From: a bacterium
GTDB taxonomy: Bacteria; Patescibacteriota; Minisyncoccia; Sungbacterales; HO2-52-23
Direction: 5' to 3'
Assembly: GCA_030697705.1 (NCBI GenBank)
Contig: JAUYPE010000018.1
Coordinates: 1 to 50,241 of the forward strand
DNA: 50,241 nt
Both the position numbers and the translations under genes were made by a program. Shown piece by piece: positions 24,176 through 44,821 of this stretch; within the stretch, counting starts at the first letter, position 1, and each line of letters begins with the position of its first letter. The notes under the pieces are model-generated. The model was not told the DNA's origin. It saw only the letters and a list, made by a program, of their open reading frames with translations, and searched no databases.

Positions 24176-24177
24176 TT

Positions 24178-24275: not shown

Positions 24276-24284
24276 TTATCCACA
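24276..24284 (+). promoter_or_regulatory. DnaA-box consensus
   Basis: TTATCCACA exact match, followed by an inverted GGATAA. Confidence 0.4.
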
Positions 24285-24393
24285 GGGGATAATGAGATTA
24301 GAGAACTTGTAGATTCGTAGGGCAATTCGCGTATAGTGTCAATAGCCGATCCGTGCAACCTTATTGCCTGAAAAGCAGTTTTACTTAGCATCT

Positions 24394-28363: not shown

Positions 28364-28392
28364 ATGCTGAACATCGTCATCCGGTTGGCTCA

Positions 28393-28421
28393 TTGCAAAG
28401 CGGTGAATCGCGTGGTATCAT
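28393..28421 (+). promoter_or_regulatory. sigma70-type promoter
   Basis: TTGCAA-17 nt-TATCAT with TG extension. Confidence 0.55.
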
Positions 28422-28529
28422 CCGACAAAAGAAATAAAAGGATTTACTGTATAGTACCCGGGCATTATGCGCGCGAAAGCAATCAAAATTTTTGTTGAGT
28501 TATAAACTTATCCACTTTTCACAAGAATT

Positions 28530-29429: not shown

Positions 29430-29434
29430 TTACT

Positions 29435-30268
29435 ATGCGCGTACTTCTTTTTGGCGGCACGGGACAACTTGGTTCTGAACTTTTAGCGCAAGGAACATCA
29501 AAGGGATGGACTATTCATGCGCCATCAGTGGATGAGGTAGATATTCAAAATGTGGAAGCGATAAAAAGGATTATTGCGGGAGCGCCTCCTGATTTGATTA
29601 TCAATGCGGCGGGATATCACGGACTGGCTTCGGCGGAGCGAGAACCCCAAAAAGCTCTCGCAATAAATTTCATTGCCGTGGCAAATATAGCCATCCTTGC
29701 TCAAACCTACCAAATACCATTCATAACTTATTCAACTGGTTATGTCTTTGCTGGTGATAAGGGAGATTGTTATGAAGAAGATGATGTCCCTTGTCCCATT
29801 AACGCTTACGGACGATCAAAATACATGGGAGAATTACTTGCACGGCGCAGCGCTCCCCAACTCGCAACCGTCATACGCACGAGTGTTTTATTCGGAGGAG
29901 AAAGTTTTTTGCTGAAAATTTTAAAGAAGAATAAGAATAAGGTTAAGGTGAGCGACGAGCAAATAATAAGTCCTACTTATGCTAAACATTTGGCGGCTGG
30001 CACAATACAACTTATTGAAAAAAAAGCCCCCGCCGCCATCTATCATCTCGTAAGTGAGGGCGCCTGCTCATTGGCTTATCTTGCCATGGAAACAATTAAA
30101 TTATCAGGATCATCCACTAAGATAATTCCAGTTAATTCGCGCGGATACAGAAAGGGAGTGCATCGTCCCCTTAACTCCTCGTTGCGGAATGTTCGCGCTC
30201 GGTCCCTCGGAGTAATGTTTCCCTCTTGGCAAGGAGCATTAAAAGAATATCTAAAATCTTTATCATGA
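29435..30268 (+). CDS. rfbD: dTDP-4-dehydrorhamnose reductase
   Basis: GGTGQLG, INAAGY, STGYVF.G, P.NAYGRSK, DEQIISPTY, RPLNSSL. Confidence 0.85.
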   Translation: MRVLLFGGTGQLGSELLAQGTSKGWTIHAPSVDEVDIQNVEAIKRIIAGAPPDLIINAAGYHGLASAEREPQKALAINFIAVANIAILAQTYQIPFITYSTGYVFAGDKGDCYEEDDVPCPINAYGRSKYMGELLARRSAPQLATVIRTSVLFGGESFLLKILKKNKNKVKVSDEQIISPTYAKHLAAGTIQLIEKKAPAAIYHLVSEGACSLAYLAMETIKLSGSSTKIIPVNSRGYRKGVHRPLNSSLRNVRARSLGVMFPSWQGALKEYLKSLS

Positions 30269-30290
30269 TTATTCTCCATTTTTCTTCTAT

Positions 30291-30338
30291 CTTAGATTCA
30301 AGCTTCTAACGCAACAGCGTCAGAAGCTTGAATCTAAG
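30291..30338. repeat. Long perfect palindrome
   Basis: 17-bp inverted repeat CTTAGATTCAAGCTTCT / AGAAGCTTGAATCTAAG around a 14-nt spacer that itself pairs (ACGC/GCGT). Confidence 0.8.
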
Positions 30339-30429
30339 CAATTTAAGAATACTGAATGAAGAACAAGAAGAGAGATTCTCTTTTTTCCTGATGTTCCTTA
30401 TTCTTAATGTATCATTTATCATTTTTCTC

Positions 30430-30750
30430 ATGCGCGTAGGCATTGATCTTGTCGCGGTGAAAAAATTTCTGAAGGTTAAAAAAACGGACTACTGGCGGTG
30501 GAGTCATGTCTTTACCGTCAACGAGTGGGCGTATGCCTTTCGGGATGTTCACAGAGCGGAACATTTGGCTGGGATGTTTGCGGCGAAAGAAGCGGCGATG
30601 AAGGCGTCGGGTCGCATGGGCGTGGAGTATTTGAAATTTTTTGAAGTGCGCCATACCGCTCGGGGGGCTCCTTCTCTGCGTCGTGCGGGTTATCGGGTGA
30701 GTATCAGTCATGACCGAACTTATGCGATTGCCGTTGTACTCGTAGAATAA
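30430..30750 (+). CDS. acpS: Holo-ACP synthase (4'-phosphopantetheinyl transferase)
   Basis: VGIDLV, FT..E, LAGMFAAKEAAMKA, G.P, VSISHD..YAIAVV. Confidence 0.9.
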   Translation: MRVGIDLVAVKKFLKVKKTDYWRWSHVFTVNEWAYAFRDVHRAEHLAGMFAAKEAAMKASGRMGVEYLKFFEVRHTARGAPSLRRAGYRVSISHDRTYAIAVVLVE

Positions 30751-30767
30751 GTGACGGGGCGGAATGT

Positions 30768-32411
30768 ATGAAATTTTCGGATCTCCAACAGGAAGTCAGC
30801 GCTCTGGTGGACAAAGGCGAGTCGTCGTCCGCGCCGTATCTTTTGTGCGCCAAAAATATGGATGTGTTTGAGGACGGCACACCCTCCTATGTCCGTACCG
30901 TGCGCGCAGCGTTCCTTGGAAGCTACACCTTGCAAGGACTCGCCGAGGTGTACCGTGCGCGCGGAATTTTTCATAACATTCTCGTACAGGTCTATACGGC
31001 GCCGTACAACCAATTCAGCCAAGAGATCCTCGCGAGTGAAAGCGGACTTCACACATTCAATCCTGATCTCGTGTATCTTTTACTGGATGCCCCCGATCTC
31101 TTAAGCACTACCCACCTGGCGGATCTCATTGCCGCGTTATTAGAGCGGACGCGCGCACAAATTATTATTTTTAATTTCGTCTCCGGTCCGCGCATCGATG
31201 AAACTGCGGTTGTGGAGCGTAATCGGCAATTGGCGGCGTTGTGCGGTGAGAACACGCGGACGCATCTTTTTGATTTTCACTCGTTTCTTGAGCGTATCGG
31301 CAAAGACGCGCATTGGTATACCAAGTATGCCGACTTGGGCGATCTGCGCCTCTCGCCCGCGGCTTTTCCCGCACTCGCCGAATCTTTGCTCGGTTATGCG
31401 GTCGCCCATGCGGGGAATACGAAAAAATGCGCCGTGCTTGATTTGGACAATACCTTATGGCAGGGGATAGTGGGGGAGGACGGTCCGGAAAATATCGTGC
31501 CCGACCGGAAGCTCCAGACGCACCTACTCTCGCTTTTTGAAAAAGGCATCATCCTTGCGCTTGACAGTAAAAATAACGAGGAGGATGCCCTGCCTATTTT
31601 TGAAAATTGTCCCGACATGGTCTTGCGAAAAAATCATATCGCCGCGTGGCGAGTGAATTGGGAGAGCAAGGAAAAAAATATCGCCGAGCTTGCCGAGGAG
31701 CTGAATCTTGGCACTGAAAGTTTTGTTTTTGTGGACGACGATCCGTTTCAGCGAGGTGCGGTACGGACGGCGTTTCCCGAAATCGCCGTCCTATCTCCCG
31801 AACAGATCTATGACTACGCGGGGTTCTGTTCTTTTGCGATTACCGACGAAGACCGTCGGCGCGGCTCCATGTACGCGGAAGAACGCCAACGGCGCGAACT
31901 GAAGGGCTCGCTCCGTACCGAGGAGGATTTTCTCAAAGAGCTTGATTTGCATGTCGTCATGAACGAGGTGTCCGATGAGACGATGGCGCGCGTGAGCCAG
32001 CTTACGCAAAAAACCAACCAATTCAATCTCACGACGCGCCGCTACGGAGAGGATGATATCAGGCGACTTTTGGGAAAGGGGTGGCGGGTGTGGACGATCG
32101 GCGTAACCGACCGTTTCGGCGACTACGGAACGACGGGCGTGGTCATGATTGAACCGCAGAGCGCTGATGAATGGCGCGTTGATAACTTTCTTTTGAGTTG
32201 CCGCGTCCTCGGAAGAAAAGTGGAAGACCGTCTCGTCGCCCATCTCATTGATGCGGCCGGGCGCGCCGGGGTGCGGACGATCCACGCGGAGTATCGCGCT
32301 TCGTCAAAAAATCGGCAGACCGAGTCGTTTTGGGACCGGATGGCATTCACGCGCATAAAAGAAGATAATGAACACACTCTTTACCGCCATGAACTCACCG
32401 TTGCCACATAA
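30768..32411 (+). CDS. fkbH: FkbH-like HAD-IIIC glyceryl-ACP synthase
   Basis: PYNQF.QE, VLDLDNTLWQG, SKNN, NW..K, FVDD, QLTQKTNQFNLTTRRY, DRFGDYG, LLSCRVLGR. Confidence 0.9.
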   Translation: MKFSDLQQEVSALVDKGESSSAPYLLCAKNMDVFEDGTPSYVRTVRAAFLGSYTLQGLAEVYRARGIFHNILVQVYTAPYNQFSQEILASESGLHTFNPDLVYLLLDAPDLLSTTHLADLIAALLERTRAQIIIFNFVSGPRIDETAVVERNRQLAALCGENTRTHLFDFHSFLERIGKDAHWYTKYADLGDLRLSPAAFPALAESLLGYAVAHAGNTKKCAVLDLDNTLWQGIVGEDGPENIVPDRKLQTHLLSLFEKGIILALDSKNNEEDALPIFENCPDMVLRKNHIAAWRVNWESKEKNIAELAEELNLGTESFVFVDDDPFQRGAVRTAFPEIAVLSPEQIYDYAGFCSFAITDEDRRRGSMYAEERQRRELKGSLRTEEDFLKELDLHVVMNEVSDETMARVSQLTQKTNQFNLTTRRYGEDDIRRLLGKGWRVWTIGVTDRFGDYGTTGVVMIEPQSADEWRVDNFLLSCRVLGRKVEDRLVAHLIDAAGRAGVRTIHAEYRASSKNRQTESFWDRMAFTRIKEDNEHTLYRHELTVAT

Positions 32412-32649
32412 TGCTCCGCTTGATATCCGCCGCGTACTGGGTGAGATGTTTGGCGTACCTGCCGAATCGTTGAAAGATGAGGATTCACCCGAGACGATTC
32501 CGGCGTGGGATTCGTTCCAGACGCTTATCATGTTTCAGGAGGTGGAGCGGGCGGCGGGTATCTCCTTCACGCTGGACGATATCAAGCGGGTTCGCACGGT
32601 AGGGGATCTGAAAAAAATATTACGCGCTTATCAGGTGCCCCTTCTGTGA
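32389..32649 (+). CDS. Acyl carrier protein
   Basis: IPAWDSF (phosphopantetheine Ser), E...GI.F, RTVGDL; overlaps the end of fkbH; start 32368 or 32389. Confidence 0.85.
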   Translation: MNSPLPHNAPLDIRRVLGEMFGVPAESLKDEDSPETIPAWDSFQTLIMFQEVERAAGISFTLDDIKRVRTVGDLKKILRAYQVPLL

Positions 32650-33335
32650 TTCAAATGATTCAAAATATGATTCAAAAAACGGAGTGGGAGAATTTTTTCT
32701 CAAACAATAAAGCAACCGAGTGGTACCCGAGCGAGGCGGTGGTGCGGTTTTTGTGCTCATATAGGAAAGAACACGGCTCGTCGGGCGCGAAATTTCTTGA
32801 CCTCGGATGTGGAAACGGCCGTCATGTGTGGCTCGCGGCGAAAGAAGGATTTACTCCCTACGGCATAGATCTCTCCGAGCAGGCGATCAAACTGGCGAAA
32901 GAATGGATGGCGCGAGATGGACTCTCCTACGCGGATCTGCGGCATGGTAGTATCGCCGACCCGCTTCCGTACGCTGATAATTTTTTTGATATCGCGGTGA
33001 GTTACGGCGTGCTTGACCATATGGTCATCGCCGAGGCGCGGCGCGCACTTCAAGAGCTTCTGCGCGTATTGAAACCCGGGGGCGCCATTCTTCTGAAGCT
33101 TGAATCAAACACATCGTTTACGTTTGATTCGTCGCGACAATTCGCAAAAAACGAAATTATTCTTGAGAAGAAAGTGGAAAAAGGCATGGTACAGCATTTT
33201 TTTGATCGAGATGAAGTGGTGGCATTGGTGCGCGATTTCGTCCTCGTCCGGGCATTTCGCGAAGACCTTCGGCGATTTGATGATTTGGAAAAAAACGATC
33301 AGTCGCGCTGGATTTTCATCGGTAAAAAGCCCTAG
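32646..33335 (+). CDS. Class I SAM-dependent methyltransferase
   Basis: YPSEAVVRF, LDLGCGNGRH, GIDLS, LPYADNFFD, VLKPGG; start is GTG 32646, ATG 32655 or ATG 32667. Confidence 0.9.
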   Translation: MIQMIQNMIQKTEWENFFSNNKATEWYPSEAVVRFLCSYRKEHGSSGAKFLDLGCGNGRHVWLAAKEGFTPYGIDLSEQAIKLAKEWMARDGLSYADLRHGSIADPLPYADNFFDIAVSYGVLDHMVIAEARRALQELLRVLKPGGAILLKLESNTSFTFDSSRQFAKNEIILEKKVEKGMVQHFFDRDEVVALVRDFVLVRAFREDLRRFDDLEKNDQSRWIFIGKKP

Positions 33336-33442
33336 ACCCCCCTGCATTATAACCATTTCTCCTCTCATTAATGGTCTGACAAAGTTAGATGTTGGAAATC
33401 TCAAAGAGGAGTATGAGGTTTATGCGATAAAATAAAAGCGTT

Positions 33443-35371
33443 ATGAATAACGAGCAGCTCCATCGCAAAAAGGACTCGGCGCGGATTGTGTGGGATTCAA
33501 AACCGCGCCGCGCGCCCAATCCTAAAGACATTGAGTTTCAAACCGCCGAGGTCGTGATTCCGAATCCGGAAGCCGCCGGGCAGCTGCCAGTGTCTTTTCA
33601 AGACAAGCTCCTTGGCGAAGAAGAACTGGACAAGCAGAAAATGAATCGCCTTATCTGGGGCGACAATCTGCTCGCTATGCAGGCGCTTTTGAATCAGGGC
33701 TATGAAGGCAAAATCAATCTCATTTATATTGACCCGCCGTTTGATTCCAAAGCGGACTATTCGCATAAAATTAAACTTGGCGAAACCGAATTTACCAAAG
33801 AGCCCTCGGTGATTGAGCGGCTCGCCTACAAAGACACGTGGGTCGGCGGCACGGACAGCTATTTGGATATGCTCTATCCGCGCCTGCAATTGATGAAACG
33901 TTTACTCGCTCCAAATGGCTCAATTTATGTCCACTTGGATTGGCATGTCGGACATTATGTAAAAGTGATGATGGATGAGATTTTTGGAAAAGATAATTTT
34001 GTGAATGAAATTGTATGGAATTATGTGAGTGGTGGTATTTCAAATCAATTTTTCGCTCGGAAACATGATAATGTTTATTTTTATGCAAAAGATATAGAGC
34101 ACCACATTTTCAATGTGCAGAAAGAGCGTGATGAGGAAAAAATCGCAAAAATAAATAAATCGAAAATCTTCTCGGACGAAAAAGGTGAATACACCTGGTA
34201 TATCCGTCCAGATACAAATCCAAAAGTACCGCTAGGAGTGAAATCTTATCTTGATAAGTTTATGCAAGATGTATGGGATATACCAATTGTGAATCCCCAA
34301 GCGTATGAGCGACTTGATTATGACACTCAAAAACCATTAGCACTGTTGGAAAGAATCTTAAAGGCATCATCAAATGAAAATGATCTCGTTGCAGACTTTT
34401 TCTCTGGTTCCGGTACAACTCTTGCTGTTGCTGAAAAACTCAATCGGCGGTGGATTGGGTGCGAGCTCGGGAAAGTCGGTATACAAGTCGCGCGCGGGCG
34501 TCTGGTGGAGCAAAAATCAAAGCTGTTTCTTATTGAAAACATCGGCAACTACCAGCGCGAGATGATTTATCTTGGCGGAGCGCGGATTTACGAGATGCAG
34601 AAAATTATTTTGAAGCTCTATGGAGCAGAACCAATGGCGAACCGTAAGGATTTGGGCGTGCGGAAAACCGAGGACGGCGCGCTGGAACTCGTCTATTGCG
34701 GTTATCCCGACCGTGCGGTTGCGGCGCATAAGGTGGAGGATTTGGCGATTGAGGCGGCTACGCTTGACGGCGCGGGCTACAAACGACTCGTGATTTTGGC
34801 GTGGGATTATGAATACAATTATGACGAACTATTGCAGACGCGGATAAAAGCCGCCGGAAAGGATTTGAAAACGGAAATTATCAGCCGACAGATTCCGCCG
34901 GACATTTACGAGTATTTGAAACAGGCAAAATCAGAGGAAGATATTGAGCGGCTTTCGGATAAGGTAAAGTTTTTGGAAAAGCCGTATTTGAAATTGCTGA
35001 AACCGAAGGTGGATGACAACTCGGTTACCATCGGCATTGAAAAGTATGTGCTATATGACTTCCCGCTCGGAAATGGCAAGAAAGCGGACGAAGACCGCGA
35101 GGCATTGTTGCATCTCGTCAAGGACAATTTCGCTATCTTGATTGACTATTGGGCGGTGGATTGGGATTACGATGGACTGACGTTCAAAAGCCAGTGGCAG
35201 GATTTGCGCGGTTTGGGACGGAAGACAAAAGTAGTAACAACGGAGAAAGAACATTCTTATCCCTCGACTGTGCTCGGGACAGGCGAAAAAACGGGAAAAC
35301 ATACCATTGCCGTCCGCGTGGTAGATATTTTCGGCAACGATGCGACCGCAACAATTGATATAAAGGCATAA
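33443..35371 (+). CDS. mod: Type III R-M DNA methyltransferase (N6-adenine, beta class)
   Basis: LIWGDNL, IYIDPPF (motif IV), TQKP, DFFSGSGTT (motif I), IDYWAVDW, VRVVDIFGND. Confidence 0.9.
   Translation: MNNEQLHRKKDSARIVWDSKPRRAPNPKDIEFQTAEVVIPNPEAAGQLPVSFQDKLLGEEELDKQKMNRLIWGDNLLAMQALLNQGYEGKINLIYIDPPFDSKADYSHKIKLGETEFTKEPSVIERLAYKDTWVGGTDSYLDMLYPRLQLMKRLLAPNGSIYVHLDWHVGHYVKVMMDEIFGKDNFVNEIVWNYVSGGISNQFFARKHDNVYFYAKDIEHHIFNVQKERDEEKIAKINKSKIFSDEKGEYTWYIRPDTNPKVPLGVKSYLDKFMQDVWDIPIVNPQAYERLDYDTQKPLALLERILKASSNENDLVADFFSGSGTTLAVAEKLNRRWIGCELGKVGIQVARGRLVEQKSKLFLIENIGNYQREMIYLGGARIYEMQKIILKLYGAEPMANRKDLGVRKTEDGALELVYCGYPDRAVAAHKVEDLAIEAATLDGAGYKRLVILAWDYEYNYDELLQTRIKAAGKDLKTEIISRQIPPDIYEYLKQAKSEEDIERLSDKVKFLEKPYLKLLKPKVDDNSVTIGIEKYVLYDFPLGNGKKADEDREALLHLVKDNFAILIDYWAVDWDYDGLTFKSQWQDLRGLGRKTKVVTTEKEHSYPSTVLGTGEKTGKHTIAVRVVDIFGNDATATIDIKA
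35261..35284. repeat. 24-bp bulged-hairpin element read in frame within mod (PSTVLGTG)
   Basis: CCCTCGACTGTGCTCGGGACAGGC; TCCC(T)CGA/TCGGGA stem; exactly 8 codons between HSY and EKTGKHTIAV. Confidence 0.55.
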
Positions 35372-35375
35372 TTTT

Positions 35376-37004
35376 ATGTATATCCCAGAAGACATTGATG
35401 ATATTTTGCGAAATAGAGAAAATGAGGTCTTGGAATTTAAAGAAGCCAAGGGTAATTTTGATTCAGGAGATCGATCAGATTGTTGCGCTGCAATCGCAAA
35501 CACAGGCGGAGGGAGATTATTATTGGGAGTTACGGATGCTGGAGATATAGTCGGTACCAAAGTATATATGGGTACTCTTAACAAAATCCCCCATGATGTG
35601 TATCAAAGAATCAGCGTCACAATTCTGGCAGAGGATGTTCTTCATCCGAAAGGAAGAGTGGTGGTTTTTGACATACCGTCACGACCGGTTGGTCGACGTG
35701 TAAAATCAGATGGCCATTATCGCTATCCAATTCGGAAAGGGGAATCCATCGTAGAAATGGACGATGAGGATACAAAAGCAATACTTAATGAAGTGCAGCC
35801 GGATTTTTCTTCCGGCATTATCGAGAGTTTGACCATCGGTGATATTGATGAACGAGCGGTTGATGATTTTAAAAAAAGAATGGCCGAAAAAACAGGCAAC
35901 CACGCGCTTATTAATTCCTCTACGGAGCGGATATTGCAGGACGCAGAGCTTATACGGGGCGGTAAACTCACTCTCGCGTGTCTGGTTTTGCTTGGGAAGA
36001 AAGAGAAGATTGCGGAGTTATTGCCACAGGCAGAGATTATTTACGAATGGCGCAATTCATCAGAACAAATTCACCATGACTCTCGCGTGTCTTGGAGAGC
36101 GCCGTATTTTATTGTTTACGACGATATTTGGCAAACGATTCATGCACGCAATCTCCGCACACCGTACCAGGAGGGATTTATACAGCAAGAGGTGCTGGCG
36201 TTTGACGAGAAGTCGTGTCGTGAAGCTGTTAATAACGCAGTCGCCCATCGCGACTATTCAATTAGCGGGCGTTCAGTTTTTATCTATGCGTCTCCCGAAT
36301 CATTTGCAGTAGTTAGTCCCGGAGGTTTTCCAGAACATATTACGCCAGAAAATATTTTAAAAGCCCCTCCGCACTGGCGGAATCGGCTGATTGCTGAAGC
36401 GCTTGAGCGTACAAAATTGGTAGAAAAATCTGGACAGGGAATAGATATAATTTTTGATGCGACTATCCGGCACGGAAAAGGGCTCCCTGATTTTAGAGGC
36501 ACAGATGCTTATACGGTGCGAATAAACATTCCGTCAAAAGTGAAAGACGCTGAATTCATAAGATTTTTGGAGAAAATTGTCAACGAAAAACAGATTAGCT
36601 TTTCTTTTGATGAAATTTATGAATTAGAGTTGCTTCGTGAGCAAAAAGTTGTCGCAAATCCGCAACACAAAGAAAAATTTTTGAAACTTGGGATTGTGGA
36701 AAAAATAGGCAAAACAAGCGGAACAAAATATATGCTTTCGCATAGGTATTATTCCTATGAGGAAAAGCCCGGTGCATATACAAGAATAAGAGGGCTTACT
36801 CGTGAGCATAAAAAACAGTTAATACTTGCGCATATTAAACGTGAAAGCCACGGTCAGATACGGGATTTTATAGATGCATTTCCTGAATTGAAGCGATCTG
36901 ATATCAATAATCTTCTTCAAGAATTAAAGCATGATAATCTGATCTATCTCGAGGGGAAGACACGGACAGGTGTTTGGAAGTTAGTTAAAAGAGAGATAGA
37001 TTAG
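35376..37004 (+). CDS. Schlafen/AlbA_2-domain protein with RecG-C/HATPase_c_4-like domain and C-terminal HTH
   Basis: ENEVLEFKE, AIANTGGG.LLLGV.D; REAVNNAVAHRDY, SPGGF, RNRLIA, VEKSGQGI; winged-HTH-like tail. Confidence 0.85.
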   Translation: MYIPEDIDDILRNRENEVLEFKEAKGNFDSGDRSDCCAAIANTGGGRLLLGVTDAGDIVGTKVYMGTLNKIPHDVYQRISVTILAEDVLHPKGRVVVFDIPSRPVGRRVKSDGHYRYPIRKGESIVEMDDEDTKAILNEVQPDFSSGIIESLTIGDIDERAVDDFKKRMAEKTGNHALINSSTERILQDAELIRGGKLTLACLVLLGKKEKIAELLPQAEIIYEWRNSSEQIHHDSRVSWRAPYFIVYDDIWQTIHARNLRTPYQEGFIQQEVLAFDEKSCREAVNNAVAHRDYSISGRSVFIYASPESFAVVSPGGFPEHITPENILKAPPHWRNRLIAEALERTKLVEKSGQGIDIIFDATIRHGKGLPDFRGTDAYTVRINIPSKVKDAEFIRFLEKIVNEKQISFSFDEIYELELLREQKVVANPQHKEKFLKLGIVEKIGKTSGTKYMLSHRYYSYEEKPGAYTRIRGLTREHKKQLILAHIKRESHGQIRDFIDAFPELKRSDINNLLQELKHDNLIYLEGKTRTGVWKLVKREID

Positions 37005-37070
37005 TTAAAGAATGATGAAAATATGGCTTAAAATAAGGGTGTGAATAAGTTGAAAGTTTAAATAGTTTTT

Positions 37071-39932
37071 ATGCCAAAGAAAGTTAAAAACAATTTACTC
37101 AATGAACTGCCGCTTGCCGCCACGCTTGCGCCGGAAGTGAAGGCGTGGGCGGATCAGGGCTGGCAGGGGGTAACCCAGACGACCTACGAACTTTTGGCGT
37201 ATTGGTTTAATCGCGACGAGGAAACGGACGAGAAATTTCATGACTGCCAGCGACGCGCGGTGGAAACGATTATTTACTGCCACGAGGTTTTGGGGATTGA
37301 AACTTTGAAGCAAGCATTTGAAAGATTCGCTCCGGAAGCACTTACGGCAAGTGCCGCGCTTTCGGAAGAAGTGCAGAATTTACCATTTGCGAAATATTGT
37401 CTTAAAATGGCAACCGGTACCGGCAAGACATGGGTTTTGGCCGCGCTTTTGGTTTGGCAGTATTTCAACGCTTTGAATGGTGAACGGCCGGGCAAGTACT
37501 CTACGCACTTTTTGCTTGTTGCGCCCGGACATGAAGTATTGAACCGCCTGCTGGATATGTTTTTGGGAAAGCATGATGTCATGACTGGCAATCGCGACAA
37601 ATCCAAATCAGATTTTGAACGAGCACTTTTTATGCCGGAGGGCGAGCGGTTTCGTAATCATTTTCATCTGCGAATACTGGAGCCGTCCGACATTCGACCT
37701 AATCTTACACCACCGGATGAGCCGTTTGTGTATATCACCAACTGGCAACAGTTTCGTTTGAAAGAATCCACCAATTTATGGGACCAACTGACGGGCGCTG
37801 ATGTTGAGGAACAACCACGCGGTGAGATTATTGCTGATTTTATGAGCGAGTATTCGGATTTGATTATTTTCAACGACGAGGCGCACCATGTCCACGACGC
37901 CAAAACCGCCAAAGGCGAGGAATTGGTCTGGCGGAAATTCTTGGTGGTACTTTATAACCGAATGGCGGAAAAGCGCGGCAGTGAAAGGGGCGTATTTTTG
38001 CAAATTGATTTTTCCGCCACGCCTTTCTATGGAAGTGCTACAAAGAAAGAGTATTTTCCCCATATCGTTTATGACTTTGACCTTGTAGAAGCGATGAGGG
38101 CTATGCTTGTGAAGCAGATATTTTTGGAAGAACGGCAAGGAATGATGGGCGAGAGAATGGAAGACCTTGAGCCCCTAGCCGAACGAGCCGAGGCGGACGA
38201 TGAACGTCGTCGTGGACAGGTTATCAGTGTTTCCGTAAGTCAAAAACTGCTTTTGGACATCGGCAGAAAAAAGATGGAGCAGATAGCCGTGGAATTTCGC
38301 GAAAAAGGAATGGATAAAAAGCCGGTGCTTTTTGTGCTTGCGGAAAATACCGAAGTGGCAGATTTGGTTGCTGAACATTTGGCTAATTTGACCGACGAGT
38401 GCGGGAGGAATTATCGCAATCAGATTCTCGTGATTCATTCTGATAAAAAGGGTGAGATGAGCGAAAAAGATTGGGAAAAGTATCGTCAGCAACTGGAAAC
38501 ACTGGATGAGTCGGAAGAAATAAACCCGATTCGCGTTGTGGTGAGCGTCTTGATGTTGCGCGAGGGCTTTGATACGCAAAATGTGGCGGTAGTCGTAGTT
38601 TTGCGAAGCGCGAAAGCCGATCTCCTCTTGGAGCAGATTGTTGGGCGTGGCGTTCGGCTGATGTTTCCAGAATATAAATATCCCGAACTTATGGACTTGA
38701 AGCGGGAGGCGCGAGAGGATGTGATGAGAAAGCGTGCGCCTAAAAACTCTTTGGACTTTCTGTTTGTCGTTGAACATCCGAAATTCAGGGGTTTTTATGA
38801 AGAATTACAGAGGCAGGGATACGCCATTGGCATGGGAGATTCTTCCGGCACGGAAACGACCGGCGACTTGGCTTTATCGGAAGCCACGCCCGAAAGAATT
38901 AAAAAATATGATCTTTTATGGCCGATACAGGTGTACGAACAGTCGCCAAAGTTTGATTTTTCCGCCATAGGTATTTCGGGGTTACCGAAGTACTCCATTC
39001 CATTTGAGGTGCTCAAAAAACAGCTTTCCAGAATCTCCATCACAGAAACACATGCCGAGACGGGCGGGAAAATAAAAACATGGAAACTGGACAATCAGTA
39101 TTTTGACTATGGCCATTTCTTGCGCCAAGCGACAATGGCAGTGGCTTCCGAGCGGGAAAAACATATTTTCACCGGTAATATGGCAGAAATTACGGCTATC
39201 ATTGATGAGTATGCCAGCAATTACTTATTCGGCGGCGAGATTGATTGGCAAAAGGCAGAAAATTATACGGTTCTTAACTACGCGCCGCTTTTTGATGATG
39301 TTGTGCGGAATGTAAGGAATGCACTATTGGCGGGTTTGGGCGCGATTCAATATGAAGTGAAAGCAGGGAAAATTGGCAGATTGAGCGATGTGAAAAAAAT
39401 TTTCGTGCGCAAATCGTTTTCCGTGCCGGTAGAGCGGTGTATTTATCCGCTTTCTGCATATTCACGCCGTGGAGAGGGTTTTGAGAAAAAATTTATGGAG
39501 GAAACTCTGGATAAATCCGCCGAGGTTGAGGCGTTTGGAAAAATCCAACAGAGAAAACACTTGCTCAATATTTCTTATCGGGACAAAGACGAAATCAAAC
39601 GGGATTATTTTCCCGACTTTATTATCAAGACAAGAGATAAAATGTATATCGTGGAGACCAAAGCCGAGGGCGAGATGCAAAATGCGGAAGGCAACGAAAA
39701 GAATTTGATCGTTTTGAAGGCGCGTGCGGCGATAAGCTGGTGCAAAACGGCAAGCCAAGTGTCGCTACCAAGCCAACCGCAGGAATGGGAGTATTTTATG
39801 CTCTCCGAAAAAACATTCAACGAAAATCGGCAGTTGGGCTTTGATGCGGTAGCGACTTTGGGCAGATTGGATTTAGAGCGACTCTTGGCGGCTGGAGCGG
39901 GTAAATTGTTTCTTATGCAAGAGGTCTTATGA
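37071..39932 (+). CDS. res: Type III restriction endonuclease/helicase subunit
   Basis: MATGTGKT, NDEAHH, FSATP, MLREGFD, EQIVGRGVR; C-terminal YFPDF..VETK PD-(D/E)xK motif. Confidence 0.9.
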   Translation: MPKKVKNNLLNELPLAATLAPEVKAWADQGWQGVTQTTYELLAYWFNRDEETDEKFHDCQRRAVETIIYCHEVLGIETLKQAFERFAPEALTASAALSEEVQNLPFAKYCLKMATGTGKTWVLAALLVWQYFNALNGERPGKYSTHFLLVAPGHEVLNRLLDMFLGKHDVMTGNRDKSKSDFERALFMPEGERFRNHFHLRILEPSDIRPNLTPPDEPFVYITNWQQFRLKESTNLWDQLTGADVEEQPRGEIIADFMSEYSDLIIFNDEAHHVHDAKTAKGEELVWRKFLVVLYNRMAEKRGSERGVFLQIDFSATPFYGSATKKEYFPHIVYDFDLVEAMRAMLVKQIFLEERQGMMGERMEDLEPLAERAEADDERRRGQVISVSVSQKLLLDIGRKKMEQIAVEFREKGMDKKPVLFVLAENTEVADLVAEHLANLTDECGRNYRNQILVIHSDKKGEMSEKDWEKYRQQLETLDESEEINPIRVVVSVLMLREGFDTQNVAVVVVLRSAKADLLLEQIVGRGVRLMFPEYKYPELMDLKREAREDVMRKRAPKNSLDFLFVVEHPKFRGFYEELQRQGYAIGMGDSSGTETTGDLALSEATPERIKKYDLLWPIQVYEQSPKFDFSAIGISGLPKYSIPFEVLKKQLSRISITETHAETGGKIKTWKLDNQYFDYGHFLRQATMAVASEREKHIFTGNMAEITAIIDEYASNYLFGGEIDWQKAENYTVLNYAPLFDDVVRNVRNALLAGLGAIQYEVKAGKIGRLSDVKKIFVRKSFSVPVERCIYPLSAYSRRGEGFEKKFMEETLDKSAEVEAFGKIQQRKHLLNISYRDKDEIKRDYFPDFIIKTRDKMYIVETKAEGEMQNAEGNEKNLIVLKARAAISWCKTASQVSLPSQPQEWEYFMLSEKTFNENRQLGFDAVATLGRLDLERLLAAGAGKLFLMQEVL

Positions 39933-40954
39933 AGGCACTTACGATTTGTCCCCTAGCGCCTGACGACCACGAGGCGTTCGGGTTTTATATAGCCAAGGCG
40001 TACCACGAGAAATATATTCTGCGCGACCGGCGCTATCGCGAGTGGCAATATGGCGAAAGTTTACTGCTTGCGAAACACGACGGTGTCGTCGTCGGCCATT
40101 TCGGATTCCGCGACATGCGATATAAAGTATATGATCGCACCCTATTGGTACGCGTGCTCATGAATTTGTTTGTGAACCCCGACTACCGGCTGACGGGTGT
40201 CGGCGCGATTTTAGGGCGGGAAGTATTCGGAGAAGACCATCCCGTGCTCGTCTCTGGCTATACCTCTTTGGCTGAAAAACTTTTCTCGCATCTGCGTCCT
40301 CAATGGAAAAATACGGGAGTCCTTACGCGTTTTTTTGCGGTGTTGAATCCGGCGGCTCCTTTATTTGAAAGGTACGCAATTCCTCAAACGACGCTCTCCC
40401 ATACCGAGAGTGGGGCGATAACCGTCGATGAGCGTGTGCCTTCCGGGCCGTTTATTGATGCGTGCTGGCGCTTAGCAAAAGACCGTTTTCTAGTGACGGT
40501 TGAGCGGACCGCTTCGTATGTAACTTGGCGCTTTATCCGCCATCCGTTCTTCTCGTATCTTTACCTCACCGCGCGACAAAAATCCTCTCCGGCGGGTTAT
40601 CTTGTAGGCAGGATAGAGGAGGATAAGGGCTTCCGCATCGCTCGTATCATAGACCTCATAGCCACCCCCGCGGTTGAGGGGGCGCTTTTGGGAGCTTTTA
40701 TTGAACGCGCCAAACGCGAGGGTGCGGACGGGGCTGATATGTTTTTTTCGGGTTCCGTCTATCGCGAGGCGTTGCATGGGGCGGGTTTCTTTGATGTCGC
40801 GGGTACGGATTTTGAAAAATTTCCTATCCTGTTCAGTCCGCTGTCATTCAAAAAGGCCTCAATAAATATCGGGTATGACATGAACGCACCGCTGGAGGAT
40901 TGTTTTTTTACCAAGGCGGACGGAGATCAAGATCGTCCGAATCCGTACCAGTAG
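39929..40954 (+). CDS. GNAT-family acyltransferase (double GNAT fold)
   Basis: WQY, VVGH, LFVNPDYRLTGVG, R...Y..WRF..HP, KADGDQDRP. Confidence 0.75.
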   Translation: MKALTICPLAPDDHEAFGFYIAKAYHEKYILRDRRYREWQYGESLLLAKHDGVVVGHFGFRDMRYKVYDRTLLVRVLMNLFVNPDYRLTGVGAILGREVFGEDHPVLVSGYTSLAEKLFSHLRPQWKNTGVLTRFFAVLNPAAPLFERYAIPQTTLSHTESGAITVDERVPSGPFIDACWRLAKDRFLVTVERTASYVTWRFIRHPFFSYLYLTARQKSSPAGYLVGRIEEDKGFRIARIIDLIATPAVEGALLGAFIERAKREGADGADMFFSGSVYREALHGAGFFDVAGTDFEKFPILFSPLSFKKASINIGYDMNAPLEDCFFTKADGDQDRPNPYQ

Positions 40955-40964
40955 GAATAATATC

Positions 40965-42176
40965 ATGGTTTCTGTGCAAAAAAAGAGAAAAATCTGCTTT
41001 CCCATCATGAACCGGGTACACTACGCCCGGCAAAAATATCTGCTTGATTTACTGCAGGCCGACTCGCGCATCCAACTGCAAGTCGTCGTGGGAGGGTCCG
41101 CACTGCTGGAAAAATACGGCGAGCGCTTCGTACCCGCACTGGAGCAGTCGGGATTCCATGTTGACGATGCGCTCTATAATGTCATAGAGGGAGGCAACCA
41201 TATCGCGATGGCGAAAACCGCGGCGCTCACGGCGCTTGAGTTTTCCAATTCGCTCTATAAACTCAATCCAGATATTGTGCTGGTGCGCGGCGACCGGTTT
41301 GAACAGCTCGCCGTTGCGATGGTGGCGGCGTATGTGAACAAGACCGTTGCCCATATTGAGGGAGGAGATGTGTCGGGTACGATTGACGAGAGCGTCCGGC
41401 ATGCCATTACCAAGTTGGCGCATATCCACATGGTAACCAATGAAGACGCGCGCCGGCGGGTCATCCAGATGGGGGAGCGTCCCGCGAGCGTCTTTAATAT
41501 CGGATCGCCCGATGTGGAGTTCGCCGCGCGGGAGAAGAAAAAAATTGACGCCGCGCTCTGGCGCTCCATCGGTACGGGTCACGACATTGATTTTACCAAA
41601 CCCTACCTGATGGTCATGTATCATCCGGTCACCACGGAGGTGGACAATAAAGGTCCGGCGGAGGCGCTTCTTTCCGCCGTAGATGCGCTTAACATGCAGA
41701 CCGTATGGTTCTGGCCCAACAGCGATGCTGGTACCAATGAAATTGCCAAGGCGATCAGAGTGTGGCGGGAGGGAAAGAAGATAAAAAACAAGAAAATCAA
41801 ATTCGTCACCGATGTGCTCCCCGAGGATTTCATCGCACTCCTGCGCGGAGCAAGCGTATTAGTGGGCAACTCGTCCTCCGGCATTAAAGAGGCGTCGTAT
41901 CTCGGGGTTCCCGTGGTGAATATCGGTACGCGGCAAGGGGGTCGCCTGCGCGGTCCTCATGTGCGCGATGCGGGGTACGACACGAATGCCATACACGCCG
42001 CGATCCGCGCCCAGCTCAAACACGGACCGTACCATTCCTCTCATCTCTATTACCAGCCAAACACAAGCGAACGGATAGTGGACATTCTTGCCGGCGCCGA
42101 ACTCTCCATACAGAAAAAATTTATTGATGCGGAGGTTCCGCCGCTTCCGTCAACCATGAACGCGGTGGGGGTGTGA
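40965..42176 (+). CDS. neuC: Hydrolysing UDP-GlcNAc 2-epimerase (NeuC/LegG family)
   Basis: RGDRFE, HIEGGDVSGTIDESVRHAITKLAH, YHPVT, PNSDAG, VGNSSSG, NIGTRQ. Confidence 0.92.
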   Translation: MVSVQKKRKICFPIMNRVHYARQKYLLDLLQADSRIQLQVVVGGSALLEKYGERFVPALEQSGFHVDDALYNVIEGGNHIAMAKTAALTALEFSNSLYKLNPDIVLVRGDRFEQLAVAMVAAYVNKTVAHIEGGDVSGTIDESVRHAITKLAHIHMVTNEDARRRVIQMGERPASVFNIGSPDVEFAAREKKKIDAALWRSIGTGHDIDFTKPYLMVMYHPVTTEVDNKGPAEALLSAVDALNMQTVWFWPNSDAGTNEIAKAIRVWREGKKIKNKKIKFVTDVLPEDFIALLRGASVLVGNSSSGIKEASYLGVPVVNIGTRQGGRLRGPHVRDAGYDTNAIHAAIRAQLKHGPYHSSHLYYQPNTSERIVDILAGAELSIQKKFIDAEVPPLPSTMNAVGV

Positions 42177-42212
42177 CACTGAAAGATGGCGGGTACACGC
42201 GAGAGAACGCTT

Positions 42213-42914
42213 ATGAAAATTCTTGGTATCATAACGGCGCGAGGCGGTTCTAAAGGAATCCCTGGCAAAAATATTAAGCCGCTTGCGGGCACGCCACTAA
42301 TCGTTTACACGATTGAAGCGGCGCGGCAGTCCGGTGTTTTTGATCGCGTCATTCTTTCTACGGATGATGCGGAAATTGCCGAGATAGCTCGCGCGCACGG
42401 ATGCGAAGTGCCGTTCATGCGTCCTGCCGAGTTGGCGCAGGATACGACGCCGCATCTGCCCGTTTTACAGCATGCCGTTACGCATCTCCGAGAGCATGAA
42501 AACTATGCGCCCGACGCGGTCATGATTCTCCAGCCGACCGCGCCTTTACGCACGGCGGAGCATATTCACGAAGCGGTTAAACTTTTTGAAAAAAGTAATG
42601 CCGACTCGGTCGTGAGCGTATGCGAGGTACCGGGCCACTACAATCCGCATTGGCAATTTACCATTGATAATAAAAGTCATTTAGCAATTTTTACCGGCGA
42701 ACCATTTTCTCAAATTGTACCGCGGAGACAGGATTTATTGAAAACATATGCGCGCAATGGTGCTATTTATATATGTAAAACAATTTCTTTGTTTGATGTA
42801 GCTCTACCTTTGTATGGCAATCATGTCTTGGCGTATGTAATGAAATCGGAGGAAAGTGTAAATCTTGATACGATAGAGGACTGGAAAGAGGCGGAGAGGA
42901 TATTGATGAAATAG
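42213..42914 (+). CDS. neuA: CMP-nonulosonate synthetase, copy 2
   Basis: ITARGGSKGIPGKN, LSTD, LQPTAPLR, RRQDL, NGAIY, NLDT. Confidence 0.92.
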   Translation: MKILGIITARGGSKGIPGKNIKPLAGTPLIVYTIEAARQSGVFDRVILSTDDAEIAEIARAHGCEVPFMRPAELAQDTTPHLPVLQHAVTHLREHENYAPDAVMILQPTAPLRTAEHIHEAVKLFEKSNADSVVSVCEVPGHYNPHWQFTIDNKSHLAIFTGEPFSQIVPRRQDLLKTYARNGAIYICKTISLFDVALPLYGNHVLAYVMKSEESVNLDTIEDWKEAERILMK

Positions 42915-42929: not shown

Positions 42930-43568
42930 ATGGAAGAAAATCTACAAAAAAAGCTAGAAAATGAACTAGAAACCTCTCTTAAAAATTATAGTGAGGGTGC
43001 CTTTCCTCAAGTTGAGCGAATGCATAAACTTTTGGATCAAGAATATGAAAAGGAAATTGACGATCAGATTAATTTTTTAAGAAATATTACCGTTATGGCA
43101 GGCGTTGTTGCTCCCTTTTCATTAACATTATTATCAGATCAATCATTGGGTGTACAAAAGCCCTTCTTACTAATAGGCTTCATCCTGTTGCTTAGTACTG
43201 TTCTTGTGACACTTCTTTCTTCCAAGAAGTTTCTATTAAACAGAAAGTATAAAGATACTCCCAACTTAGCTCGTAATCATATTATTGCAAGATGTTCGGT
43301 TGATGATCTTTTAAATATAAATAAATCTTTAAGCGACAGGGTTATTTCACTCAATGAAGTTCAAAAAAGCATTGACACTGTTTACCATAAATTTAGTAAT
43401 CTTGGCTATACAAACAAACTTACAGATTTAAGAAATAGACTTTCGGCAAGTAATCGATGGTCAATTTTTCTTTTTTCATTCGGATTAATTTCTATAATGA
43501 TGTCAGTTGTGTATACTTATTCAGTGATTTTTTTTGACTCCTTTATCAGTCTTATTATAAATTCTTAG
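42930..43568 (+). CDS. AT-rich hypothetical membrane protein (about 3 TM)
   Basis: 212-aa ORF with three hydrophobic segments; 18/60 GC in line 43261. Confidence 0.7.
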   Translation: MEENLQKKLENELETSLKNYSEGAFPQVERMHKLLDQEYEKEIDDQINFLRNITVMAGVVAPFSLTLLSDQSLGVQKPFLLIGFILLLSTVLVTLLSSKKFLLNRKYKDTPNLARNHIIARCSVDDLLNINKSLSDRVISLNEVQKSIDTVYHKFSNLGYTNKLTDLRNRLSASNRWSIFLFSFGLISIMMSVVYTYSVIFFDSFISLIINS

Positions 43569-43580
43569 AATAAAACTACC

Positions 43581-44693
43581 GTGGAAAAATTCTCGTTTCA
43601 TAGAAAAAATGTCTTTATCATCGCCGAGGTTGGGAAGAATTTTATTCAGACGGAAGAGGAGCGGCCCGTCGCTGAGTATCTTGAAAATGCAAAAGTGCTC
43701 GCGCGCGCGGCAAAGCTGGCGGGAGCGGATGCGGTGAAATTTCAGACGCATACGGTTGAGGACGAACAGCTCAATATCAATGTGATCTCGCCGCATTTTA
43801 AAGGGGCTGACCGTTATTCATGGGTGACGCGCAACACGAACGCAACGCCGTTTGACGGTTTTTGGAAGCCGTTAAAAACATATTGCGATGAGGTCGGGAT
43901 CATCTTTTTTTCAACGCCCATGTCGCGCGGGGCGGCGCAAAAATTGCTCCTCCTTGACCAGCCGATCTGGAAGGTTGGTTCGGGCGATATTTTGGATTTT
44001 GTCATGTTGGACTATCTCGTGGCAACCAAAAAACCGATTATCATGTCGGCGGGCATGTCCACCTTGGAAGAGCTGGACATGTCCATACACTTTCTTAAAA
44101 AACGAAACGCCGAAATCATTCTTCTTCACTGCGTGTCAAAATACCCTTGTCCGCCGGAGGAGTTGCGCTTGGCGACGATCGGGTTTTTTCAAAAACGCTA
44201 TCCGGAGCTGACCATTGGATTTTCCGACCATTCTATCGGCATTGATTCGTCGCTTGCCGCCGTGGCGCTCGGCGCAAAAGTAATTGAGAAGCACTTCTCG
44301 CTCCGCCGCGATTTATACGGCGCAGATCATAAAGTATCCATGACGCCGAGCGAAATGGCGGAATTGGTCGCCGGCATTCGTGAGTTTGAAAAAAATCCAG
44401 CGGTTGCGGAAGCGTATCTCGCTAAAGATATTGTAAAAAAAGGAATGGGAACCGCGGAGAAGGTATTGCAAGAGGACGAGGCGGTATTCCGACCTTTTTT
44501 CCGCAAGTCGCTCATGGCGGGACGCGCACTGCCAATCGGTACCGTGCTTCGTGCGGATGATATCTACGCCATGCGTCCCCAACAATTCGCCGGCGGTTTG
44601 CCCTCCGAACACTATGAAGCAGTGCTCGGTAAAAAACTTTCCCGTCCGCTCAAAAAATTTGATCCGATTACCGCGGATGTTTTTGTTGTATAG
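43581..44693 (+). CDS. neuB: Nonulosonic acid synthase (NeuB family) with SAF domain, copy 2
   Basis: IIAEVG.N, GADAVKFQT, STP, KVGSGD, LHCVSKYP, GFSDHS, IEKHF, DH..S, RKSL...MRP SAF domain. Confidence 0.9.
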   Translation: MEKFSFHRKNVFIIAEVGKNFIQTEEERPVAEYLENAKVLARAAKLAGADAVKFQTHTVEDEQLNINVISPHFKGADRYSWVTRNTNATPFDGFWKPLKTYCDEVGIIFFSTPMSRGAAQKLLLLDQPIWKVGSGDILDFVMLDYLVATKKPIIMSAGMSTLEELDMSIHFLKKRNAEIILLHCVSKYPCPPEELRLATIGFFQKRYPELTIGFSDHSIGIDSSLAAVALGAKVIEKHFSLRRDLYGADHKVSMTPSEMAELVAGIREFEKNPAVAEAYLAKDIVKKGMGTAEKVLQEDEAVFRPFFRKSLMAGRALPIGTVLRADDIYAMRPQQFAGGLPSEHYEAVLGKKLSRPLKKFDPITADVFVV

Positions 44694-44787: not shown

Positions 44788-44821
44788 ACCCGACTTGTCA
44801 TGTGATGAGTCGGGTTTTTTT
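44788..44821 (+). terminator. Intrinsic terminator
   Basis: ACCCGACTTGTCA...TGATGAGTCGGGT followed by a T-run. Confidence 0.8.

Follow-up and report, generated by a model that had tools for sequence, protein, structure and literature searches.

A predicted N-acyl exchange cassette for nonulosonic acids, equipped with its own acyl carrier protein, in a Patescibacteria genome

Background

Enzymes of the FkbH/OzmB type load glyceryl groups onto an acyl carrier protein (ACP) for methoxymalonyl-ACP and tetronates. In the NodB/NodA/NodF and LpxC/LpxD systems an amino sugar is de-N-acetylated and then N-acylated from an acyl carrier protein; NodB is a CE4 deacetylase. Here we describe a gene cassette that is new as a combination, although its parts are known: the logic of NodB/NodA/NodF or LpxC/LpxD, a polyketide loader and a sialic-acid-like target. 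The cassette lies in a mostly plus-strand glycan island occupying the window, i.e. the entire 50,241-base contig JAUYPE010000018.1 of assembly GCA_030697705.1 (Sungbacterales; 858,288 bases in 30 contigs, 96.17% complete). It comprises genes for a phosphopantetheinyl transferase (acpS), an FkbH-like loader, an ACP and a methyltransferase (MT), followed beyond a type III restriction-modification (R-M) block by genes for a tandem GNAT protein and for nonulosonic acid synthesis (neuC, neuA2, neuB2).

The sequence-only reading of this DNA stated that N-glyceroyl and O-methylglyceroyl forms of pseudaminic acid (Pse) are natural, and the papers found agree. Tannerella forsythia makes Pse5Am7Gra, a natural N-glyceroyl nonulosonic acid, and the genetic basis of its glyceroyl group was called 'a major challenge' in 2017 (PMC5378307). 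The T. forsythia pathway is of the Pse type with an aminotransferase, whereas the genome considered here has no aminotransferase match. Pse of Campylobacter jejuni 11168 carries a 2,3-di-O-methylglyceroyl group (PMC3068675), and the flagellin locus of strain NCTC 11168 holds the fkbH-domain gene cj1302 (PMC7099621). Compared by description only, this locus resembles the window in the fkbH-domain gene and in the O-methylated glyceroyl amide. It differs in that the sugar is Pse and the proposed deacylating protein Cj1295 is aminopeptidase-like, not CE4 (PMC3068675). The searchable literature contains no description of the roles of cj1302 and its neighbours. We take it that acpP and methyltransferase genes lie near cj1302.

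Glycosylation islands of Aeromonas contain ACP, AMP-dependent synthetase and deacetylases, termed 'fatty acid synthesis' proteins, with no mechanism given in the available part of the source (PMC7874193). We found no paper describing the cassette, subscription-only papers and supplements lying outside the search. Nothing in the literature searched links FkbH to nucleotide sugars or sialic acids, and the papers found, so far as their text was available, offer no mechanism connecting nonulosonic acids with an acyl carrier protein.

All 49 open reading frames (ORFs) of the window were scanned with Pfam, and NCBIfam profiles with curated cut-offs were also applied. The loader shares with the FkbH/OzmB polyketide loaders the TIGR01686 domain, the HAD residues, the conserved cysteine and a small dedicated ACP adjoining it. 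Unlike those systems, the window lacks a polyketide synthase, an FkbK/FkbI-type dehydrogenase and an FkbG-type methyltransferase, and the product would pass to a GNAT in a sugar operon. No polyketide synthase, non-ribosomal peptide synthetase or fatty-acid synthase was observed among the 49 ORFs, as the sequence-only reading had claimed, and no acyl-CoA or 3-hydroxyacyl-CoA dehydrogenase domain. A role in making methoxymalonyl-ACP or a polyketide was rejected, as there are neither dehydrogenases nor a synthase.

The similarity to the Nod and Lpx systems is one of logic only: the window shows no NodA or left-handed beta-helix acyltransferase domain. A tandem GNAT takes the place of NodA or of the left-handed beta-helix LpxD, the acyl group would be a C3 hydroxy acid derived from glycolysis instead of a fatty acid, and the sugar would be a nonulosonic acid precursor. 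A third comparison is with D-alanylation by DltA, DltC, DltB and DltD. In two related genomes (G040 and G013) the loader module likewise seems to feed a DltB-like MBOAT protein from a carrier protein, whereas the window has no MBOAT and its route would run through a cytoplasmic GNAT. Here and below, G numbers denote related genomes; L102 and L103/L104 are metagenome loci, and other L numbers are loci in other genomes.

Results and discussion

Structure of the cassette and proposed pathway

We consider it likely, judging from domain content and gene order, that the cassette performs an N-acyl exchange: a Neu-type nonulosonic acid would be deacetylated and then re-acylated from O-methylglyceroyl-ACP. 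The genes implicated are as follows.

25341-26033, plus strand: HAD hydrolase
26033-27409, plus strand: TagF/Glyphos_transf-like protein, 458 aa, candidate nonulosonic acid transferase
27416-28363, plus strand: CE4 (NodB-type) deacetylase
30430-30750, plus strand: acpS, group I phosphopantetheinyl transferase, 106 aa
30768-32411, plus strand: fkbH-like loader with an N-terminal domain, a HAD-IIIC phosphatase and a C-terminal acyl-enzyme domain
32389-32649 (alternative start 32368), plus strand: acp, carrier protein
32655-33335, plus strand: MT, class I S-adenosylmethionine (SAM) methyltransferase
39929-40954, plus strand: tandem GNAT, 341 aa
40965-42176, plus strand: neuC, hydrolysing UDP-GlcNAc 2-epimerase
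42186-42914, plus strand: neuA2, CMP-nonulosonate cytidylyltransferase
43581-44693, plus strand: neuB2, nonulosonate synthase with a SAF domain

The ORFs and the Pfam and NCBIfam matches bear out the gene calls, the coordinates and the tight packing of acpS, fkbH, acp and MT given by the sequence-only reading. The 5' part of acp overlaps the 3' end of fkbH, and MT begins 5 nt past the acp stop codon.

In the proposed pathway AcpS would prime the ACP. The FkbH-like enzyme would take 1,3-bisphosphoglycerate, dephosphorylate it and load the glyceryl group onto the ACP, where MT would O-methylate it; in relatives having a MaoC dehydratase and a short-chain dehydrogenase/reductase (SDR) in the MT slot, a lactyl group would result instead. 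The cytoplasmic CE4 enzyme would strip the N-acetyl group from a soluble NeuC/NeuB/NeuA intermediate (UDP-GlcNAc, ManNAc, Neu5Ac or the CMP form), and the tandem GNAT would acylate the freed amine from the ACP. NeuA would activate the sugar, the TagF-like protein being the candidate transferase.

Loader and carrier protein

The FkbH-like protein matches TIGR01686 with E-value 4e-90 (302.2 bits, cut-off 146.65) and HAD-SF-IIIC with 57.5 bits (cut-off 35.75). The HAD motifs I-IV (DxD, S/T, K, DD) and the cysteine of the C-terminal domain are all present, and each of the 24 homologues keeps residues D225, D227, S267, K301, D323, D324 and C478. The position of C478 is, we presume, that of the cysteine with a known role in the FkbH C-terminal domain. 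The genome encodes GAPDH and PGK, so 1,3-bisphosphoglycerate should be available.

One could imagine that the enzyme loads an acid other than glycerate, the acyl group then not being glyceroyl-derived. Indeed, FkbH proteins of the polysaccharide type have an extra N-terminal domain, share just 27-54% identity among themselves, and none has been assayed; we know of no biochemistry for any of them. The sole relative in PDB, BF1531 (3slr), has the same extra domain and is uncharacterised. However, the TIGR01686 score is twice the cut-off with all HAD and cysteine positions kept, the dehydratase and ketoreductase-type SDR of relatives fit a 2,3-dihydroxy acid, and N-glyceroyl and di-O-methylglyceroyl nonulosonic acids occur naturally (PMC5378307, PMC3068675). 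A different acid is therefore improbable.

The AcpS protein scores 45.8 bits with PF01648 (cut-off 25) and 55 bits with TIGR00556 (cut-off 45.35), and is below the cut-off of the AcpS equivalog TIGR00516 (47.1 against 59.8 bits). It is the only ACPS match in the genome, as the cassette ACP is the only PP-binding match. The attachment motif W40-D41-S42 of the ACP is invariant in 16 of 16 aligned orthologues, and the orthologues from L010, L011, L012, L013 and L083 exceed the Pfam cut-off with 24.8-39.2 bits. The genome, at 96% completeness, has no match to the ketoacyl synthase family PF00109. By these matches it has no fatty-acid synthase, exactly one ACP and exactly one AcpS, and the predicted carrier system is a private one. 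This is the outcome of the check for fab genes suggested by the sequence-only reading.

That reading had also argued that a dedicated AcpS makes sense in a host lacking fatty-acid synthesis, and the distribution of acpS agrees with it. We considered 24 FkbH-bearing loci with a profile derived from the AcpS proteins of the cassettes. Eight of them belong to the order of the window or to metagenome-assembled genomes (MAGs) that are unnamed or of Patescibacteria, and seven of these eight have acpS along with fkbH; of the 16 loci from other phyla none does. This fits the idea that only hosts without fatty-acid synthesis bring their own AcpS.

Some observations here weigh against the N-acyl exchange proposal. 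The ACP of the window itself, with 14.1 bits, stays below the Pfam PP-binding cut-off of 20.8. A search of the 96% complete genome gave no match to CoaE or to SAM synthetase. CoA for priming and SAM for methylation must then come from elsewhere or from missed genes; presumably the cell scavenges both. Thus the 'self-sufficient' route of the sequence-only reading was worded too strongly, as it does not cover the supply of these two cofactors. The cofactor gap exists alongside AcpS, which uses CoA, and several SAM methyltransferases, including the DNA methylase of the R-M block.

Tailoring enzymes

MT matches Methyltransf_11 with 78.4 bits and belongs to the Methyltransf_11/25/31 type. Orthologues occupy the same slot between acp and the GNAT gene, with overlapping stop and start codons, in L102 (94% identity) and L103 (75%). 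Among the 60 nearest genomes five have FkbH homologues. In G012, G032, G039 and G040 a MaoC dehydratase comes after the ACP, in most cases together with an SDR. A precedent is the FR901464 loading module, where the glyceryl group is dehydrated to pyruvoyl and then reduced to lactyl. The single methyltransferase in the tailoring slot of the window, L102 and L103 suggests that these loci would produce O-methylglyceroyl-ACP. MT has a faint NCBIfam match to BioC (8.8e-08), a class I methyltransferase acting on an ACP-bound substrate. On the other side, MT might modify the sugar instead of the acyl group on the ACP.

In G040 (L013) and G013 (L014) the module ends in a DltB-like MBOAT protein (TIGR04091, 4.9e-41) and lacks the GNAT. 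These MBOAT loci, AcpS-FkbH-ACP-MaoC(-SDR) followed by the DltB-like MBOAT and a 315-367-aa protein of unknown function (L013, 8912-14039; L014, 5452-10920), look like a Dlt-like route that would place a glycerate-derived acyl group on an extracellular polymer. Since the module may end either in an MBOAT or in a GNAT, the loader appears to be portable, the last enzyme deciding the destination of the acyl group. By the same token the GNAT can be read as a user of acyl-ACP, because in the MBOAT relatives, too, the gene following the tailoring genes encodes an acyltransferase.

Acyltransferase

The GNAT protein matches Acetyltransf_1 with 28.1 bits (cut-off 20.7). NCBIfam has no model for it or for five diverse family members. 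A word-based search yielded only 51 near-full-length relatives, mostly unnamed proteins of Patescibacteria, with no characterised member. A profile search of 1.84 billion representatives gave 11,133 matches at E<=0.001, 4,533 at E<=1e-10 and 236 at E<=1e-30; in viral contigs the scan found none. The GNATs of Paenibacillus and Flavobacterium align over 318 columns (hhalign probability 98.9%) and have a common tail, KADGDQDRPN.

The AlphaFold (AF2) model has a tandem GNAT fold (pLDDT 93, pTM 0.90). The nearest folds found by Foldseek are N-myristoyltransferase, Eis and 2ozg (E about 1e-11, TMq 0.52-0.61), whereas the PDB sequence search with the GNAT profile gave weak matches only, the best of 0.0023. 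Complex prediction from GNAT and ACP alignments gave a score of 0.02, which weighs neither way.

More telling are gene fusions. In L024, from a Chloroflexia MAG, one 453-aa ORF consists of an ACP followed by the GNAT. In L022, from a Pirellulaceae MAG, one ORF contains the C-terminal part of FkbH, an ACP and the GNAT, its 5' end being cut by the contig start. Among the best 150 GNAT representatives, all six proteins longer than 420 aa are fusions: three ACP-GNAT, one full FkbH-ACP-GNAT (1,068 aa), one truncated FkbH-ACP-GNAT and one AMP-binding-GNAT (866 aa). Of the in-silico evidence, these fusions argue most strongly that a carrier protein supplies the GNAT with its acyl group, and we propose that the enzyme is an acyl-ACP-dependent N-acyltransferase.

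It might instead be an ordinary acetyl- or acyl-CoA N-acetyltransferase, the product of FkbH, ACP and MT going to another acceptor, e.g. via the GNAT-like C-terminal domain of FkbH. The protein does retain the R-x-x-G-x-G/A motif (R87, G90), which counts against the ACP-dependent reading: we take this motif to be typical of CoA-binding GNATs, so that an acyl-CoA donor is conceivable. Moreover, the top structural matches, N-myristoyltransferase and Eis, use acyl-CoA, and the family has no characterised member to compare with. However, an ordinary CoA-dependent enzyme would hardly be expected to be fused to ACP, FkbH-ACP or AMP-binding domains, to have carrier-related genes around it in 36 of 39 fully flanked loci (below), or to be linked by overlapping stop and start codons in the series acp-MT-GNAT, as in L102 and L103. 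Nor is any other acyltransferase seen among the 49 Pfam-scanned ORFs of the window. The CoA-dependent alternative is thus quite unlikely.

Gene neighbourhoods

A scan of one genome per species gave 295 GNAT relatives, and 80 loci were kept; a GNAT ORF was called in 73 of them and the other seven were dropped. The kept loci span Bacillota, Bacteroidota, Chloroflexota, Gemmatimonadota, Planctomycetota, Pseudomonadota, Cyanobacteria, Actinomycetota and Patescibacteria. Among the cultured bacteria with an orthologous cassette are Flavobacterium succinicans DD5b, Pedobacter steynii DSM 19110, Paenibacillus azoreducens KCTC 3829 and Lacrimispora species. Neighbours were labelled by BLAST with the window proteins and by a home-made ACP profile; Pfam applied to five loci agreed with the labels. 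The loci are interrelated and also served to build the ACP profile, a point against leaning on them heavily: the counts below describe a pattern without amounting to a statistical test.

A deacetylase homologue is what most often adjoins the GNAT gene directly, in 28 of the 73 loci. In 40 loci an ACP-like ORF was observed within five genes; 15 loci have FkbH, 38 have an AMP-binding enzyme, and 59 have a carrier-related gene of some kind. The two kinds of loader, FkbH and AMP-binding enzymes, never occur in the same locus. The ACP is on the GNAT strand in 37 of 38 loci. Of the 608 ORFs within five genes, 39 are ACP-like, compared to 10 of the 550 that lie farther off. In the 39 loci with at least 8 kb on both sides, carrier-related genes were observed in 36, ACP in 32, deacetylase in 26 and NeuA/B/C in 20.

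Two loci illustrate the pattern. In Paenibacillus, legionaminic-type genes are followed by the deacetylase, the GNAT, an oxidoreductase, an AMP-binding enzyme and an 82-aa carrier. In Flavobacterium, NeuB, NeuC and other genes are followed by FkbH, ACP, MaoC, SDR, the GNAT and the deacetylase.

A wider reading, to which we hold only tentatively, is that the tandem GNAT acts together with the CE4 deacetylase as a general, loader-independent machine for N-acyl exchange on nonulosonic acids. The N-acetyl group would be replaced by the acid of whichever loader is nearby: FkbH with MT, FkbH with dehydratase and reductase, or adenylating enzymes.

A larger and different acyl-building set stands beside the deacetylase-GNAT pair in L049 (Roseburia zhanii, 10432-18659). 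It consists of two split transketolase pairs, a FabA-like protein, a radical SAM/SPASM protein, an 80-aa carrier, a metallo-beta-lactamase-fold protein and an AMP-binding enzyme, and points to possibly more exotic acyl groups.

Target sugar and deacetylase

NeuC is a good hydrolysing 2-epimerase (TIGR03568, 4e-105, 351.7 bits against 235.9). NeuA2 matches CTP_transf_3 with 92.7 bits, and its best equivalog, PseF, is below the cut-off (192.3 against 205.7). NeuB2 matches NeuB with 224.9 bits and contains the SAF domain, and both of its equivalogs are below their cut-offs. The DegT-type aminotransferase family PF01041 (PseC/LegC) has no match in the 96.17% complete genome, whereas this control matched 14 of 14 reference genomes. 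The Pse and legionaminic (Leg) pathways were rejected on this ground. Since there is no DegT aminotransferase and NeuC is a convincing hydrolysing epimerase, a Neu-type sugar is favoured; the simplest product would be a Neu-type acid with one nitrogen. The sequence-only reading named a nonulosonic acid as the target, and the neu genes adjoining the GNAT agree with that, but its pseudaminic type is at odds with the missing aminotransferase and the presence of neuC.

The deacetylase matches Polysacc_deac_1 with 76.2 bits (cut-off 23.1). Its residues D72, D73, H220 and H224 (Asp-Asp and His-x3-His) are conserved in 44 of 44 homologues, and a search of the protein for a signal- or transmembrane-like segment found none. 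As the CE4 residues are intact and there is no export signal, the enzyme would fit a soluble precursor. Its Flavobacterium orthologue has a faint match to NodB (0.0011).

The acyl group could, in principle, end up elsewhere than on the nitrogen of a nonulosonic acid, for example on a hydroxyl as an ester or on the amine of another amino sugar of the island. Against our assignment, NeuA/B/C occur near the GNAT in just 20 of the 39 fully flanked loci, which leaves room for other amino-sugar targets; further, two relatives pair the same loader with the DltB-like O-acyltransferase, and the window has many other sugar genes. However, in its own lineage (the window, L102, L103/L104, G032) the GNAT gene is always directly upstream of neuC, its most frequent direct neighbour is the CE4 N-deacetylase (28 of 73 loci), and its fold relatives are N-acyltransferases. 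We regard a different target as unlikely.

The TagF-like protein has a weak NCBIfam match to the BFO_1060 glycosyltransferase family of T. forsythia (1e-05, 24.9 bits against a cut-off of 200), and its orthologues in relatives match Pfam Glyphos_transf. Its gene is beside the deacetylase gene also in L103 (70% identity), L010, L011 and L012. A search of the protein for a hydrophobic segment found none.

R-M insertion and the natural empty site

Between MT and the GNAT gene the window contains the following features.

33333-39928, plus strand: type III R-M insert
33443-35371, plus strand: mod (DNA methylase), inside the insert
35376-37004, plus strand: Schlafen/AlbA_2-HATPase_c_4 gene, between mod and res
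37071-39932, plus strand: res (ResIII), at the downstream end of the insert

A metagenome contig scan with MT identified L102, whose DNA is 84-89% identical to the window and whose MT protein is 94% identical. Positions 3349-4014 of L102 align to 32666-33331 of the window, and 4021-6864 to 39929-42790. Just 6 nt lie between the two aligned blocks, and the MT stop codon overlaps the GNAT ATG. The extra DNA of the window is thus 33333-39928 (6,596 nt). The sequence-only reading predicted that deleting this segment would join MT to GNAT-neuC-neuA2-neuB2, and L102 is a natural empty site at the predicted borders.

The order without the R-M genes recurs elsewhere, as that reading had asked to be checked. 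L103/L104 have the order HAD, TagF-like, deacetylase, AcpS, FkbH, ACP, MT, GNAT, NeuC, NeuA with overlapping stops and starts, no R-M genes, nothing between deacetylase and AcpS, and an MT protein 75% identical to that of the window. In L102 MT and GNAT are joined, and in G032 the order is AcpS-FkbH-ACP-MaoC-SDR-GNAT-NeuC-...-NeuB. Thus fkbH and acp neighbour GNAT and neu genes also outside the window (L103/L104, G032), an association whose absence the sequence-only reading would have taken as evidence against itself.

The insert has a GC content of 0.448, compared to 0.525 and 0.522 in the flanks. Its ends match MTase_III (4.2e-85) and REase_III (1.6e-17) in PADLOC. Pfam gives N6_N4_Mtase and ResIII matches, with the unrelated Schlafen/AlbA_2 gene between mod and res. 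The stop codon of res overlaps the GNAT ATG. Metagenome contigs from two other studies cover the R-M part alone at 85% identity or more, the flanks being uncovered; therefore relatives of the R-M system occupy other contexts. No convincing direct or inverted repeats were found at the borders, and no integrase, transposase or other recombinase was found by Pfam in the insert. Because L102 represents an empty site at the predicted borders, the R-M block is, on comparative grounds, an insertion into a once contiguous, translationally coupled acpS-fkbH-acp-MT-GNAT-neuC-neuA-neuB operon.

Both junctions of the insert are bridged with zero differences by contigs in two samples that one study dates to 2022 and 2023; one of the two samples is possibly the source of the genome itself. 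No contig in four metagenome runs joins 33332 to 39929; contigs drop rare variants, so this leaves polymorphism unaddressed. In a contig of low depth (2.2) from run X1 just 2 letters separate 35372 from 37070, which suggests that R-M relatives without the middle Schlafen/AlbA_2 gene exist.

The insertion could have silenced the downstream half of the operon, the cassette now decaying. This would follow from 6.6 kb of foreign DNA within a formerly coupled gene pair, and possible polar effects of such an insert count against a working pathway. However, the ORFs are intact on both sides, all genes are codirectional with the res stop overlapping the GNAT start, no strong terminator-like site is seen between 30 and 44.7 kb, and the insert-bearing form was assembled without differences in both samples. 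Silencing is thus highly improbable. Since the R-M genes are codirectional and res is coupled to the GNAT start, the exchange cassette probably still works despite the insert.

Other features of the operon and of the window

Three further features lie within or at the end of the operon.

28364-30429, plus strand: low-GC block with genes at 28530-30268 for a 299-aa protein and an RmlD-like reductase, and a hairpin
42930-43568: ORF of 212 aa between neuA2 and neuB2
44788-44815, plus strand: terminator-like hairpin 3' of neuB2, a 12-bp stem followed by a T run

The first block, with a GC content of 0.408, looks like another insertion into the same operon, as the deacetylase gene directly adjoins acpS in L103. 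The RmlD-like reductase is close to the cut-off of TIGR01214 (217.4 against 224.05 bits). The hairpin at 30291-30338, before acpS, is near-perfect with a stem of about 21 bp (-31.7 kcal/mol) and occurs in a single copy in the genome; it could be the terminator of the inserted block or a regulatory element.

Neither the 299-aa nor the 212-aa protein matches a Pfam or NCBIfam family, and an Atlas search with the latter gave hypothetical clusters only. The 212-aa ORF has a very low GC content, 0.309. In L102 the slot between neuA2 and neuB2 is occupied instead by a 392-aa GFO/IDH/MocA-like gene. Positions 6200-7030 of L102 align to the neuA2 DNA of the window, yet no intact neuA2 frame was called there, which could be a contig frameshift or a pseudogene.

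In the sequence scan, the hairpin at 44788-44815 is the sole strong terminator-like site from 28 to 45 kb. Overall, the promoter and terminator scans of the window gave no excess over shuffled sequence (21 terminator-like sites against 20.0 in shuffles).

A second nonulosonate set is located at 20433-26033. It contains neuA1, neuB1 without the SAF domain and a HAD phosphatase gene overlapping the end of neuB1, and is broken by a minus-strand subtilase gene (22571-23776). The window also contains genes for three PhyH-like dioxygenases and three small cupins.

Conclusions

Comparative genomics supports the overall interpretation of the sequence-only reading, the synteny, fab-gene and neighbour comparisons all being favourable. 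The R-M block offers a clean case, with a natural empty site, of a mobile R-M element inside an operon without gene breakage. With 4,533 cluster representatives at E<=1e-10 the GNAT family is a large one, and no curated model covers it. The genome considered here, ultra-small and lacking lipid synthesis, appears to keep a full carrier-protein system purely for decorating a surface sugar.

The N-acyl variety of bacterial sialic-acid-like sugars shapes their recognition by phages, immune systems and lectins, while the genes installing groups such as glyceroyl are, in the literature found and as far as the source was available, still unknown (PMC5378307). If the general exchange machine is real, it would supply the genetic basis that is so far lacking for glyceroyl, methylglyceroyl, lactyl and other exotic N-acyl groups on bacterial nonulosonic acids. 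The product of the window, if correctly predicted, would be a neuraminic-type sugar with an N-(O-methylglyceroyl) group, a bacterial parallel to the difference between N-glycolyl and N-acetyl forms in animals, and it would be made by a cell unable to make fatty acids.

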